A stretch of 64,000 nt of DNA from Candidatus Hodarchaeaceae archaeon (GTDB lineage: Archaea > Hadarchaeota > Hadarchaeia > Hadarchaeales > Hadarchaeaceae). The notes under the pieces were generated by a model. That model saw nothing but the letters and a program-made list of their open reading frames with translations, searched no databases and had not been told where the DNA came from. The position numbers were made by a program, and so were the translations under genes. Positions 18,818 through 31,590 of the stretch are shown here, in pieces (within the stretch, counting starts at the first letter, position 1; the number at the start of each line of letters is the position of its first letter). Where the stretch lies: the NCBI GenBank assembly GCA_030018135.1, contig JASEGJ010000001.1, forward strand, positions 1 through 64,000, read 5' to 3'.

Positions 18818-18925
18818 GTCAAGAACCGCCGGTCAAAGACCGGCGGCATGAAATGGTTCGACTTCAGGATACTAACTCAGCTACGAGCTACGGGTTACCA
18901 CCAGTCAAAGACTGGTGGAATTCTT
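18818..18925. mobile_element. IS200/IS605-like miniature element (paired terminal hairpins)
   Basis: CCGCCGGTC-AAA-GACCGGCGG (18826-18846) and CCACCAGTC-AAA-GACTGGTGG (18898-18918), first preceded by GTCAA. Confidence 0.6.
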
Positions 18926-21005: not shown

Positions 21006-21089
21006 CGGCTGGACCTTGGTCCGAGGTCTCGTCGCGGCCGGCCAGTGTTTCCACCTTATAAATCGCCCCCGCCAAAGGCACGGCGGACG

Positions 21090-21401
21090 ATGTCTGAGGT
21101 AAGACGAGGGATGGCGATGGCATACCTGCTCATTTTCGACCTGAAGGGGGGCAACACCGCCGGTAGGAGGCGGGTGAACAGGTACCTGAGGAAGGCCGCG
21201 AGGAGGGTTCAACAATCGGTGTGGGAGTTCAAGGACCTGCGGGCACTCATGGGCGCTGCCCGGCTGATATCGGCCGTCGGGGGGCGCGCGATGGCATTCG
21301 TCAGGGGGGACGCGCTCGTTTTGGAAATGTCTGAGGTAAGACAAGTCCTGAGCGACGCCTCGGGTAAAATATCAAGCTCGAAGGGGAGATGTCTTAGGTA
21401 A
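21090..21401 (+). CDS. Stand-alone Cas2/PaaX-middle/ChrB-N-like ferredoxin-fold protein (start 21090, 21111 or 21117)
   Basis: YLLIFDL, RRRVNRYLRK, RVQQSVWE, GGRA; TTATAAAT box at about 21056. Confidence 0.6.
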   Translation: MSEVRRGMAMAYLLIFDLKGGNTAGRRRVNRYLRKAARRVQQSVWEFKDLRALMGAARLISAVGGRAMAFVRGDALVLEMSEVRQVLSDASGKISSSKGRCLR

Positions 21402-21648
21402 GACATCCTCCGACCCGCGAACTTCCTTGCCAAACGCCCGGATGATTTCGTACAAGTGGGTGGCGTGCCGCGATTTAGCGTGTCTGAGGTAAGACAAGAT
21501 GTCTTAGTTAAGACACCAATTTTAGCGCGCGTCTTAGGTAAGACATATCGACCTCGGAGTTGTCTTACGTAAGACACGATGCAAGGTTGAGGGCTGTCGC
21601 GCGAAACATCAAAGGGGCGAGGGTCTGTCCCATGTCTTAAGTAAGACA
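21091..21648. repeat. Cluster of eight 16-bp palindromes TGTCTTA-NN-TAAGACA
   Basis: Copies start at 21091, 21328, 21390, 21481, 21500, 21530, 21561, 21633. Confidence 0.95.
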
Positions 21649-21701
21649 TGCCAACAAGCCGACTTCAATGCGAGGTCGAGCGCGACCACGAAATTTTTCG
21701 G

Positions 21702-23252: not shown

Positions 23253-23582
23253 ATGGTGAGAAGGCTCCATTACCAAACCGAGGAACCCGTCACCACCGAT
23301 GAGCTCGAGCTGTTGAAGAAGGTCAAGGAGAGCTACAACGCGATGCACAGGCTGAGCAGCCGGAGGATTAGGCTCTGGAAAAAATCTGACATCCTCGAGT
23401 GCTTGGAGCCGCGGGACGCCGTCTGGGGTTTCACCACCGTCCGCGACGACGGGGAATCTGTGGTCCGGGCGATAAAGGAGATGTCGAGGGCGGCGCCGCG
23501 GTTGACCTGGATCTTGTACGATGAGGGCTCGGCCGGGGGCGGGGAAGCGGTGATCAAAAACGGGGAAATCGTGCATCAATAG
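23253..23582 (+). CDS. Hypothetical protein
   Basis: GGGAG SD, coding-like composition; no recognised motif. Confidence 0.55.
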   Translation: MVRRLHYQTEEPVTTDELELLKKVKESYNAMHRLSSRRIRLWKKSDILECLEPRDAVWGFTTVRDDGESVVRAIKEMSRAAPRLTWILYDEGSAGGGEAVIKNGEIVHQ

Positions 23583-23718
23583 CGGAAAAGTGCTCGAGGC
23601 CGACGGCGAAATCCGGCTTGGGTTAGAAGGGCAAAAATTGCTCGCCAGTTGCCCCACGGGCGAAAATGGCCCGAGGTCTAGCTCGGTGCAACCTTTATAG
23701 GTCGAGGCAAAAATCGAC

Positions 23719-26152: not shown

Positions 26153-27394
26153 TTATCCCATATCCGACGATCTGGCCTTAGACTGGCGCTTGGCCCGCGT
26201 TAGCATCTCGACCACGGGCATCGATTTCCCCGAGAGGAAGCTCACGCACGCGCCCCCGCCCGTGCTGATGTGCCCAATTTTATCCGCCACGCCCGCCGCC
26301 TGGGCTGCGGCCACCAAATGTCCCCCGCCTATTATCGTGAACGCCCTAGAATCAGCCATAGCCCTCAGCAATCCCAACGTCCCCCTCGCGAACGCCGGAT
26401 TCTCGAACATCCCAAATGGACCGCCGGCGACTATGGTCCTTGCACCCGCCATTACCCTAGAGTACCCACCTATCGTCCGACTGCCCACATCGCATATCAG
26501 CAGTTCGGTGGGAAGTTGCTCCAAGGTTAGCTCCCTCGGCTCCCCGTGGTCGTCGACGACCAAATCCACGGGCATCTTTATCCTCTCGCCGTACATGGCT
26601 AGCAGTTCCCCGGCCTGCGCGATCTCCGACTTAAAGCCCCTCTCGAGTAACAAGTTTAGGTTGGGTTTGCCTATATCCCGCCCCGCAGCCGCGAGAAAGA
26701 CCTGCCCAACCAAGCCTCCGGTGAGCAACTCATCGACCGCCCCGTTGTCGAACGCGTTCTCGATTATCCTGAGCGCGGTCTCGACCTTTGCGCCGCCCAT
26801 CGCATAGATGCAGGGTCGCTCCGGCTTGAGCGCCCTGCTCAGCCCCTTGATCTCGCGTTCCATCAAGCGCCCCGCGAAGGTGGGCAGCACGGCGGCGAAG
26901 CCAACCAACGACGGTTGGGAGCGATGTGCGGCTGCGAAGGCATCATTGACATACACATCGACCAGTCCAGCCAAGGTGCGGACGAGGTGAGTTTTAGCAA
27001 GCTCATCCGCCGGGCGGCTGAGGACCTCTTCGGCGCAGAAGCGTACGTTCTCCAGCAGAAGTATCTCGCCGGGTTTTAGGGCTTTTATGGCCTGACGGGC
27101 CGATGGCCCGAAGACATCCGCGATGTACTTGACCTCTTGCCCGATGACGTTTCTCAGCTTTTCGGCATGTTTTTCGAGCGTCGTGAAATCCTCGTTGCCC
27201 GGGCGCCCCTGATGGGCCAGCACGACGACCCTAGCTCCCATTTGCGAGAGTTCCTTCAGCGTGGGAACGCACTCGCGAATTCTGTTATCGCCGAGGATCT
27301 CCCCGGTCTTGGGATCGAGAGGCGAGTTGATGTCCACCCGCACCAGGACTGTCTTGCCCAGGACATCGGCGTCATCCAGCGTCGGAAATTCCAA
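26153..27394 (-). CDS. pgk: Phosphoglycerate kinase
   Basis: VRVDINSP, LLENVRF, NDAFAAAHR, ISTGGGA. Confidence 0.97.
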   Translation of the reverse strand: MEFPTLDDADVLGKTVLVRVDINSPLDPKTGEILGDNRIRECVPTLKELSQMGARVVVLAHQGRPGNEDFTTLEKHAEKLRNVIGQEVKYIADVFGPSARQAIKALKPGEILLLENVRFCAEEVLSRPADELAKTHLVRTLAGLVDVYVNDAFAAAHRSQPSLVGFAAVLPTFAGRLMEREIKGLSRALKPERPCIYAMGGAKVETALRIIENAFDNGAVDELLTGGLVGQVFLAAAGRDIGKPNLNLLLERGFKSEIAQAGELLAMYGERIKMPVDLVVDDHGEPRELTLEQLPTELLICDVGSRTIGGYSRVMAGARTIVAGGPFGMFENPAFARGTLGLLRAMADSRAFTIIGGGHLVAAAQAAGVADKIGHISTGGGACVSFLSGKSMPVVEMLTRAKRQSKARSSDMG

Positions 27395-30366: not shown

Positions 30367-30780
30367 TTGGTCAAGTTAGGAATCGTGGCGTCAGAATTTA
30401 ACTGGGATATCTGCGGACCGATGCTAGAGTTCGCGAGGCGACATGCGGCTTTCTTGGAGGCGGAGGTCGTTGCGGAGGTGCTTGTTTCGGGCGTTTTCGA
30501 GATCCCGTTGGCGGCCAAGAAGCTCGCGGAGAGGCAGGACATCGATGCCGTGGTCACCCTCGGAGCGGTGATAGAGGGCGAAACCGCACACGACGAGGTG
30601 GTGATGCAGCACGCCGCGAGAAAGCTGATCGACCTAGCGGTGCAGTACGGCAAACCCGTCGCGCTCGGCATCTCGGGCCCGGGGATGACCCGAGTGCAGG
30701 GCCTAGAGAGGGTGAACGAGTACGCGAGGCGGGCGGTGGAAGCGGCCGTCAAAACGGCGAGGAGCTTACAGAAGGTGTGA
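30367..30780 (+). CDS. ribH: Lumazine synthase
   Basis: IVASEFN, G.FEIP, LGAVIEGET.HD. Confidence 0.95.
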   Translation: MVKLGIVASEFNWDICGPMLEFARRHAAFLEAEVVAEVLVSGVFEIPLAAKKLAERQDIDAVVTLGAVIEGETAHDEVVMQHAARKLIDLAVQYGKPVALGISGPGMTRVQGLERVNEYARRAVEAAVKTARSLQKV

Positions 30781-31451
30781 GCTTGAACCCTAAAGTCGGC
30801 GTCTTGGCGCTCGGGTCGCACGAGGAGAGGCACGGCGCGGCCCTGCCGCCCGATACAGACGCCAAGCTCGCATCGCACGTCGCGCTCGAGGCCGCCAAAC
30901 GGGCCGGCGCGAAGTTCCTGGGCGTACTTCACTCGTCCTACGAGCTGCCGGACGTCGACACCGGTCGCCACCAGACGCTCGAGCAACTCCTCGATGAGCT
31001 CAGGGCAAGGCTGCTCTCGGCCAAGCAGGTGCTGGGCATTTGTGCGGTCGTCTTGGTCAACGGTCACGGGGGCAATGAACCGTTGCGGGAGCGCCTGCAG
31101 GCGCTCGAGCGAGATCTCGACATGCACGTCGCGTTCAACAACGCCATAGTTGAATTCGAGGGGCCTCACGCCGCCACCGGCGAGCTCAGCATGGGGGCTG
31201 CGATAGGCATCTGCGATGGCTCGAGGCTCGCGGAACACCTGAACTTCAGCAGCCACCCGGAAGTCGGGTTCGTCGGGCTAGAGGGCGCACGGAGGCGCTA
31301 TGCATGGGCAGAGCGACATGCGCAGGAGGTGAGCAGGCAAGGTGTTCGGGTGGACAAGTCCTTGGGCGTCGAACTCGTCGAGCGAGCGGTGTCGGATGTG
31401 ATCGAGGACATCCGCAAACTTTCGAATTTTTTGGGCGAGAGAGATTTTTGA
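30777..31451 (+). CDS. arfB: FAPy-nucleotide deformylase (creatininase family)
   Basis: ALGSHEERHGAALPPDTD, NGHGGN, HA..GE; riboflavin operon. Confidence 0.88.
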   Translation: MSLNPKVGVLALGSHEERHGAALPPDTDAKLASHVALEAAKRAGAKFLGVLHSSYELPDVDTGRHQTLEQLLDELRARLLSAKQVLGICAVVLVNGHGGNEPLRERLQALERDLDMHVAFNNAIVEFEGPHAATGELSMGAAIGICDGSRLAEHLNFSSHPEVGFVGLEGARRRYAWAERHAQEVSRQGVRVDKSLGVELVERAVSDVIEDIRKLSNFLGERDF

Positions 31452-31524
31452 TACAAGTGTATCAAAAATAATAAGCCTTCGCCGACGGTTTTCTGCTTAT
31501 TTGCTAATCGCCCTAGAGAGACGA

Positions 31525-31590
31525 TGTCTGAGGTAAGACAAGATGTCTTAGTTAAGACACCAATTTTAGCGCGCGTCTTAGGTAAGACAT
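31525..31590. repeat. Three more 16-bp palindromes; exact 66-bp copy of 21481-21546
   Basis: Sites at 31525, 31544, 31574 between convergent arfB and idsA. Confidence 0.95.

Follow-up and report, generated by a model that had tools for sequence, protein, structure and literature searches.

Why would a small Cas2-like gene carry copies of one palindrome at its start, within its reading frame and on its stop codon? The question is raised by a locus in positions 1 to 64,000 of contig JASEGJ010000001.1 of Candidatus Hodarchaeaceae archaeon (assembly GCA_030018135.1; 1.108 Mb in 45 contigs, 92.9% complete), a stretch that is referred to below as the window. Cas2 is universal in CRISPR adaptation, yet what it does there other than act as a scaffold is still under debate, and little is understood of its relatives outside CRISPR loci. 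The best explanation for this locus as a whole, to which I give somewhat better than even chances, is a self-regulating Cas2-fold protein that would bind its own 16-bp dyad, TGTCTTA-NN-TAAGACA, and would be housed on a small mobile cassette. Protein and palindrome change together across relatives, which suggests a role as sequence-specific DNA reader for this Cas2-shaped protein, and filled as well as empty versions of its site are found. In the following, G000 denotes the present genome, other G codes related genomes, C codes contigs and L codes loci.

The gene, its protein and its palindromes

The gene in its long form (103 amino acids) occupies 21090-21401 on the plus strand, with a TAA stop at 21399-21401, and codes for MSEVRRGMAMAYLLIFD...RVQQSVWE...GGRA...EMSEVRQ...CLR*. 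Its own promoter is represented by a TATA box, TTATAAAT, read in the sequence at 21056-21063 of the same strand. The consensus dyad occurs three times in this unit. The first copy, TGTCTGAGGTAAGACG (21091-21106), has two mismatches to the consensus and overlaps the first ATG and the expected transcription start; the second, TGTCTGAGGTAAGACA (21328-21343), codes for the S-E-V-R-Q of a conserved C-terminal helix, the second MSEVR of the protein; and the third, TGTCTTAGGTAAGACA (21390-21405), is perfect and holds the stop codon. The earlier note on this DNA, made from the letters alone, had reported a reading frame with Cas2-like motifs and these three palindromes, and all are present as located, with 27 nt from the end of the box to the ATG at 21090. 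Its list of palindromes was incomplete, however, as it missed the five array copies that start past the stop at 21481, 21500, 21530, 21561 and 21633, and three further ones at 31525-31589. The publicly recorded protein starts at M10 (21117, MAYLLIFD) and has 94 amino acids, so that the palindrome at 21091 would form either the first five codons or a transcription-start site just 5' of the real start. In the relative from G038, the sole ATG ahead of the first strand is one within the palindrome.

With up to three mismatches allowed, 22 strand-wise matches to the dyad are found in the window, whereas 100 dinucleotide-preserving shuffles of it average 0.22 (maximum 2; none of the 100 reached 22). 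These matches correspond to 12 places, 11 of them in two clusters, and the twelfth, at 27350 with three mismatches, is a chance-level match. In the whole genome there are 29 matches, most of them in four clusters, and nearly all are intergenic or lie within the Cas2-like gene. Whether a site is intergenic was the only thing judged by a crude gene model, which includes false antisense reading frames such as 21209-21649. The latter, a minus-strand frame of 146 codons starting with MSYLRH, is an artefact of the array: the 18-bp form ATGTC...GACAT provides an ATG on both strands, and reading through the palindrome yields peptides such as MSYLRH, VLPKT and MSEVR. Likewise, the C-terminal tails of many family proteins (MSYVRH, VLGKT, CLR) are translated palindromes. 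Perfect or near-perfect copies are also seen inside conserved genes, for a radical-SAM protein and an RNA polymerase subunit E'-like protein (C11:128090-128105, L061, L060). Single perfect in-gene sites (C11:128090, G052:C29, G038:C41) were considered as targets and rejected, as they code for the peptide DVLR(K/E)T in conserved genes; such copies probably reflect a coincidence of coding and can make site counts falsely high.

Cas2 is the only meaningful Pfam or NCBIfam match of the protein. The Pfam profile PF09827 gives 22.0 bits (E 1.9e-4; the three values obtained are 22.0, 22.3 and 22.4 bits), always below its cut-off of 23.8, and TIGR01573 gives 18.4 bits, below its cut-off of 24.5. An AlphaFold2 model built on 18 homologues (mean pLDDT 78.8) has the ferredoxin-like order strand-helix-strand-strand-helix-strand, followed by a C-terminal helix of lower confidence and a disordered tail. 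Nearly all matches of this model in a Foldseek search of the PDB are Cas2 proteins, with VapD in addition; the best is 4qr0 (E 7.8e-4, TM score 0.50-0.56), Cas2 chains match with TM scores of 0.44-0.59, and the DNA-bound Cas1-Cas2 complexes 8d3l and 6qxt are among the matches. A profile of 22 family members matches the Cas2 proteins 7kft (E 8.8e-4), SSO8090 and SSO1404 over strand 1, helix 1 and strand 2 with its Q-x-S-V-W motif. Judged by this model, the protein has a Cas2 fold, as the earlier note had suspected from its motifs.

The likeness to Cas2 (e.g. 4qr0, 7kft, 2ivy, 3exc) thus lies in the ferredoxin-like fold, the size, the Y-x-x-x-x-D of strand 1 and the Q-x-S-V-W/F-E of strands 2 and 3. 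Of the 22 aligned sequences, 21 retain the metal-binding Asp of Cas2 (D8, where strand 1 ends), and L032 has Asn instead. The protein differs in falling below both curated cut-offs, in an extra basic stretch RRRVNR and the C-terminal helix, and in its private palindromes, which are unreported for Cas2; no Cas2-like protein tied to private palindromes was found in the full-text literature, a search with subscription journals and supplements outside its coverage. Its peptide (S/R/K)E(V/I)R(Q/R) is kept in relatives even where the DNA is not palindromic. It is as small and basic as the earlier note had stated, with an isoelectric point of 11.5, 19 Lys and Arg against 7 Asp and Glu, and no His. 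A Pfam scan revealed no helix-turn-helix, ribbon-helix-helix or other known DNA-reading motif. A homodimer prediction scored 0.34 (mark 0.42), which speaks neither for nor against a dimer. PaaX reads DNA through a separate winged-helix domain, which the present protein does not have; the paralogue on C44 (see below) matches the PaaX central domain (PF20803) and the ChrB N-terminal domain (PF20229) weakly, with E values of 0.0084 and 0.044, below the cut-offs.

Could the locus be what remains of a decayed CRISPR-Cas adaptation module, in which a cas2 was left over together with a mini-array that has degenerated? The Cas2-like fold and motifs and the short palindromic repeats would fit. However, the repeats are spaced irregularly (3 to ~230 nt), and they occupy the promoter, the coding sequence and the stop codon alike. 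The neighbours are housekeeping genes, with neither cas1 nor an effector gene close by, and no CRISPR array is present within the window, where Tandem Repeats Finder detected only the palindrome doublet 31523-31559, in agreement with the earlier note. For Cas1, the whole assembly holds a single 116-codon open frame (C40:15831-16019) matching Cas1 positions 217-282. Judging by dN/dS values of 0.07-0.22 in nine pairs, moreover, the protein core is under purifying selection and the gene is a real one. The family is narrow and stands apart from canonical Cas2: of 1.84 billion representatives searched with a profile, 47 match at E <= 0.001 and 10 at E <= 1e-10, and a word-indexed protein search returned 18 family members. 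Spacing, site placement, selection, family separation and the missing cas1 all contradict a CRISPR remnant, which is hardly credible. Viral contigs gave only two weak matches (31% identity over 37 residues) and hence no sign of viral carriage.

Linkage and co-variation of protein and palindrome

A protein search matched 19 of 61 related genomes, and the loci of 14 close homologues were read. The earlier note had proposed to look for the palindrome beside homologues, and this is where it is found: in 12 of the 14 loci a 16-mer dyad with at most one mismatch adjoins the gene (G006 and G001 are without), and all 16 metagenome loci, gathered with the family alignment, have 3-10 TGTC-type copies around the gene. 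A search of genome contigs with a narrower family alignment found no relative. The stop codon lies within a palindrome of at most one mismatch in 6 of the 14 loci; in most other relatives it falls in a copy that is more degenerate, or no more than ~10 nt from a palindrome of that kind. The 16 metagenome units share one anatomy. In the 5' part, one pair of sites immediately precedes the TATA box and another is in the leader; in the 3' part there are a site on the SEVRQ codons, several in the tail and on the stop, and a pair just after the gene.

Each protein lineage is flanked by its own arm sequence. The arm is TGTCTTA at the present locus, TGTCTCA in G038 and G052, TGTCCTA in G002, G003, G011, G014, G026 and G036, TGTCAAA in G012 and G030, an imperfect TGTCCAA in G007, TGACAAA in G023 and TGACATA in G010. 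The two paralogues in G000 itself (C44:37720-37944, and one on C10) are flanked by TGTCACA-CC-TGTGACA, not by TGTCTTA, so that G000 has two site types; G011 has three. Counted over genomes, TGTCTNANNTNAGACA occurs 20 times in G000, 17 times in G038 and 4 times in G052, against 0-3 times in each of the other 58, and its reversed control at most once per genome. Similarly, TGTCCTANNTAGGACA occurs in 9 of the 61 genomes, all of one family and with up to 11 copies, and 6 or 7 of these nine have the matching type around the gene (in G013 the gene is at a contig end); the misfits are G019, where no gene was found in an assembly that is 82% complete, and G007, with one copy. In G006, which has no palindrome within one mismatch beside the gene and no copy of its own type in the genome, the protein has lost conserved basic residues and is the least basic (isoelectric point 8.9), which looks, on these sequences, like joint decay of sites and protein. 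A more divergent paralogue, MAYLVIYDFKGAKTSG..., stands behind TGTCTTACGTAAGACA and a TATA box at L055, L057 and L059 (G011, G019, G025); as it escaped the protein search (E <= 0.001) in G019 and G025, the family must be larger than those genome counts imply.

The association extends to a single residue. In the loop before helix 1, GGNTA goes with TGTCTTA arms in 7 of 7 loci and GGSTA with TGTCTCA arms in 9 of 9; L052, which also combines GGSTA and TGTCTCA, fell outside the search pattern and is not in these counts. Other pairings are GRS- and RRK-x-NR with TGTCCTA, RNSS and RQRLSR with TGTCAAA, and RELDCG and TRQRVSR with TGTCACA. In a maximum-likelihood tree of 33 cores, the two loop/arm labels do not form separate groups but alternate, and its well-supported branches imply that each of loop and arm changed at least twice. 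Ten loci share their flanking genes, and among these the subgroups differ by N to S in the protein; in three of their four upstream sites there is a change from T to C in one arm and from A to G in the other, and in the fourth in one arm only. One of the co-varying site pairs is located upstream of the TATA box, hence outside the transcript, which favours recognition of DNA over that of RNA. The central two bases vary freely, as expected of a symmetric dimer that reads two half-sites, and this likewise favours duplex DNA over an RNA hairpin.

Alternatively, the palindromes could act as hairpins in mRNA, in the 5' leader, at the start codon and at the 3' end, which a Cas2/VapD-like protein would bind or cut and so control the translation or stability of its own transcript and of those nearby. 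RNase activity has been described for some Cas2 proteins and for VapD, and PDB titles among the fold matches name SSO8090 an RNase and VapD a toxin. The folded array strand is much more stable than shuffles of it (z = -6.9), with adjacent palindromes able to pair into long hairpins; the asymmetric centre AGG is oriented with at least one flanking gene in all four clusters of G000; and relatives linked to a small conserved reading frame, p126, have a site between the two cistrons, a few nt before the start codon. Apart from the conserved co-varying pair that lies off the transcript, the details of the sites speak against this: it is the would-be loop bases that vary, both arms being fixed, the commonest imperfect copy has a G-A clash and no G-U wobble, and a stem of 7 bp cannot, as such, be closed by a loop of only 2 nt. 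A comparison with Rfam gave no match. I therefore regard an RNA target as improbable, and duplex DNA remains the preferred one.

A small cassette and its gene-less arrays

The module of promoter, Cas2-like gene and palindrome array (21006-21701, plus strand) is situated between the stop of a gene for a DUF498 protein, itself preceded by one for a radical-SAM protein, and the end of a convergent gene for a beta-CASP nuclease, beyond which follow p126 and the genes for a dehydrogenase of the Ldh_2 family and for an NADH oxidase. Three of these genes (radical-SAM, DUF498 and beta-CASP) are found in collinear order in G003 and G013, 73-77% identical to the window in nucleotide sequence, but the gap between DUF498 and beta-CASP measures 71 and 68 nt (blastn), compared with 769 nt here; by tblastn the two gene ends are a few nt apart, and the alignment consists of one clean ~700-nt gap. 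From this comparison, gene and sites look like an insertion of roughly 0.7 kb at the present junction.

Both G003 and G013 carry a Cas2-like gene of their own 2 kb off on the same contig, directly after p126. This is its usual place: the gene follows p126 directly in 12 of the 15 close loci (L020-L034), it stands ahead of Ldh_2 in L022, L026 and L027, and the metagenome locus L054 has the order p126, Cas2-like gene, Ldh_2. In the window, the spacer 23583-23718, between p126 (23253-23582) and the Ldh_2 gene, is free of palindromes and would be the empty home site, while in G019 and G025 the same spacer holds two solo palindromes and no gene. Read in this way, the p126/Ldh_2 site is seen in three states, filled, footprint and empty. 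The p126 protein itself is modelled as a generic ferredoxin-like fold (pLDDT 87) with no PDB match at E <= 0.001 and no Pfam or NCBIfam family. It was considered as an obligatory partner and rejected, since many units are solitary, with a promoter to themselves and no p126.

Independent support for mobility comes from the paralogous unit in G000, to go by its two copies, C44:37608-37946 and C10:15867-16206. These are 340 bp long and 98.8% identical, with unrelated flanks; the unit ends at its outer palindromes and holds no other reading frame, and the spacer that contains it on C44 is ~500 nt shorter, i.e. empty, in G003 and G013. A further boundary is seen between L048 and L042, whose homology breaks right after a palindrome doublet. 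The promoter core of the present unit, GTTT.C..CTTATAAA..CC..GCCAAAGG..GGCGG, aligns with the promoters of the C44 unit and of the metagenome unit L042. Promoter and short leader (21020-21090 in the window, 1440-1520 in L017, 1385-1440 in L042) are similar in nucleotide sequence though the cassette proteins are only ~35-60% identical, which suggests that they form a conserved control element besides the palindromes. A scan for bacterial-type promoters and terminators gave nothing useful. On DNA contigs from four runs, relatives that are ~91-92% identical keep the order DUF498, gene, array, beta-CASP, and no gene-less or empty joint was seen among these contigs; in two of the four runs the 73 nt between the stop palindrome and the first part of the array are exchanged for 16 other letters.

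That first part, with palindrome copies 4-6, is a 66-nt module (21481-21546, plus strand) which occurs as a gene-less element elsewhere; it is followed by copy 7 (21561-21576), perfect and with a CG centre, and finally by copy 8 (21633-21648), with which the array closes, 54 nt short of where the beta-CASP gene ends. The module is present four times in the genome, always between housekeeping genes. The stretch 31525-31590 is identical to it, C41:13823-13891 and C44:8533-8603 are ~87% identical, and the latter two share 112 nt at 97.3%. Two of the arrays (21481-21648 and 31525-31589) are in convergent spacers, where no promoter is expected. The spacers between the palindromes are kept like the sites themselves and the 5' edge is sharp, which indicates copied segments rather than independently evolved operators. 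At 31476-31590 (plus strand), a degenerate remnant of the cassette promoter and the start palindrome, GACGATGTCTGAGGTAAGACAAG, abut the module; the 23-mer around this palindrome is 96% identical to 21086-21108. This array could be a second cassette which, by its layout, lost the gene through recombination between two palindromes. The first palindrome of the module has a G at arm position 6, as does the copy in the gene, where the Glu codon of SEVRQ requires it; this suggests that the module originated from the 3' end of the gene. An integrated element bounded by the two 66-nt repeats was considered and rejected, as the intervening 10 kb hold housekeeping genes for glycolysis, riboflavin and isoprenoid synthesis. 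Integron attC sites or a replication origin were likewise rejected, given the irregular spacing, the absence of an adjacent integrase or Orc1 gene, and sites that follow the Cas2-like lineage.

Do the palindromes belong to the Cas2-like protein at all? They could serve an unlinked factor, such as a host regulator or a protein that organises or segregates the chromosome, with the Cas2-like gene as target or passenger, e.g. as a VapD-like toxin. Arrays of 3-8 copies at a few loci do resemble loading sites, and p126, found in 32 of the 36 genomes of the family, is the usual upstream neighbour. Yet p126 is also present where gene and sites are absent, many units do without it, and the duplicated 340-bp unit contains no other reading frame. 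The site type tracks the Cas2-like lineage even within one genome, and a residue of the Cas2-like protein switches together with the site. An unlinked factor is for these reasons quite improbable.

Two other palindromes in the window are unlike the TGTC type. TGATACA-NN-TGTATCA forms a third palindrome family in G000, with 7 perfect copies and ~10 at up to two mismatches, located at 31449-31464 of the window, where it overlaps the stop codon of a creatininase-like gene (30777-31451), and at nine places on C9, C16, C22, C24, C33 and C43, almost all intergenic or at gene ends. A search with the present protein as query did not reveal a third Cas2-like gene in the assembly, which is 93% complete. 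A 17-bp pair, GCCGGTC-AAA-GACCGGC and ACCAGTC-AAA-GACTGGT (18828-18844 and 18900-18916), recurs at C1:34448, C1:34514, C41:58735 and C36:81, mostly near contig ends, and may be a different repeat element that breaks the assembly.

What the protein may do at its sites

On the favoured explanation, a miniature and very basic Cas2-fold protein would bind duplex DNA, probably as a symmetric dimer like Cas2 itself, with the two-fold axis of the dimer on the dyad of its private site. In Cas1-Cas2 complexes, the Cas2 dimer lies on the prespacer duplex. Here, the loop and the first turn of helix 1 (GGNTA-GRRRVNR) could read the variable bases at arm positions 5-6 in the major groove. The sites at the transcription start and start codon and at the 3' end would set the level of the protein, and repression appears the likelier direction because the first site (21091-21106) follows closely on the TATA box; L042 has one pair of sites 5' of its own TATA box and another in the leader. 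Gene and sites would make up a self-contained cassette of ~0.5-0.7 kb, placed in this genome between two convergent housekeeping genes. Cassette and site modules would be copied occasionally, pieces of gene-less array having presumably reached at least three other intergenic places.

A dyad at the gene's own transcription start and others near promoters, such as the site at C41:17188, 26 nt upstream of a TATA box, are what one would expect from autoregulated archaeal repressors, which bind at the TATA box or shortly after it, and from antitoxin or transposon-encoded regulators. The present system differs from these in the absence of a known DNA-reading motif, in having up to ten sites per gene, and in sites that lie in promoterless convergent spacers. 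Solitary small Cas2-fold proteins outside CRISPR are known in VapD of H. influenzae (PDB 6zi1) and in BPSL1038 (PMC10491678); both count as nucleases or toxins, VapD being paired with an antitoxin, and private palindromes are not reported for them. The present gene has no obligatory partner gene.

Several points weigh against the favoured explanation. I know of no Cas2-superfamily protein that reads a DNA sequence. The rows of the co-variation comparison are kin and not independent; only about two switches are forced by the tree, so that the co-variation amounts, as far as this phylogeny goes, to a few events and not to sixteen. The polarity of the gap in the collinear genomes is unrooted (insertion here or deletion in genus g4), as the three genomes of another family that were compared lack the gene order. 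G038 has many TGTCTTA sites, yet only a gene of the TGTCTCA type was found in its 75%-complete assembly. Three to ten sites per gene of 100 codons exceed what autoregulation needs, and the conserved Asp of Cas2 is not obviously required by a protein that only binds DNA, which would leave room for catalysis.

The kept Asp and the surplus of sites keep another reading alive, albeit an unlikely one, in which the sites around the gene are the footprint of element ends and not of regulation. Here the Cas2 fold would be a metal-dependent nuclease that cuts at or by the palindrome, maybe as a hairpin or cruciform, and thereby moves or copies the cassette and its modules, like the bacterial repetitive extragenic palindromic (REP) sequences and their associated tyrosine transposases (RAYTs). 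As far as the passages of PMC3116915, PMC5581495 and 10.1101/2021.07.10.451892 go, the layout is alike in a gene flanked by palindromes, intergenic clusters, sharp-ended multi-palindrome modules and several private pairs per genome, and also in largely vertical inheritance with usually one gene copy per type. The duplicate whose limits coincide exactly with its outer palindromes, the occurrence of both units in filled and empty form, the homology break after the L048/L042 doublet and the long hairpins that adjacent palindromes can form would fit as well. The systems differ in that RAYTs are Y1 HUH transposases, and the title of 10.1101/2021.07.10.451892 places REPIN-RAYT systems in eubacteria, while the host here is an archaeon and the protein has no His and therefore no HUH motif. 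It has no match to PF01797, and no conserved Tyr besides that of strand 1 stands out in the alignment; to my knowledge, no strand-transfer mechanism of catalysis exists for a Cas2 fold. The palindromes number tens per genome and not the hundreds usual for REPs, and as perfect 16-bp dyads with a 2-nt centre they are fitter for reading as duplex than as hairpins. The gene stays in its place after p126 across many genera, the p126-linked copy in G011 has Asn for the Asp and still retains palindromes, and the joint change of site and protein in place at orthologous loci is a pattern that co-evolution of binding sites would produce even without transposition. A 54-amino-acid fragment of IS200/IS605 type (C10:13220-13369) is the genome's sole Y1 match; this fragment and the Cas1 open frame look like remnants, and neither is beside TGTC palindromes. 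In passages from the RepRanger paper on archaeal REPs (PMC12306157), neither RAYT nor Cas2 is mentioned.

Taken further, this alternative would define a new class of minimal mobile elements with a Cas2 fold as their one protein, a dimer of subunits of 75-100 residues that recognises the dyad and nicks or cuts it through its metal site. A cassette of 0.34-0.7 kb and its gene-less modules would then be copied round the chromosome as an archaeal counterpart of REPIN-RAYT systems, made from the scaffold protein of CRISPR adaptation. I consider both the element class and this counterpart doubtful; were they real, they would bear on where Cas2 came from. In its filled and empty sites, copied modules and several private pairs per genome, the cassette is the first archaeal layout known to me that parallels the bacterial REP-RAYT systems.

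If the protein is indeed a binder of its own dyad, a new DNA-reading fold would be added to those known, with a simple recognition code in which one loop residue is set against one base pair, and it would show what a Cas2 dimer is capable of on DNA without Cas1. The comparisons presented here suggest that a fold known from CRISPR has turned into a sequence-specific DNA reader on a small movable cassette. In these small genomes, the behaviour of such cassettes may also explain part of the intergenic repeats and of the breaks in their assemblies.

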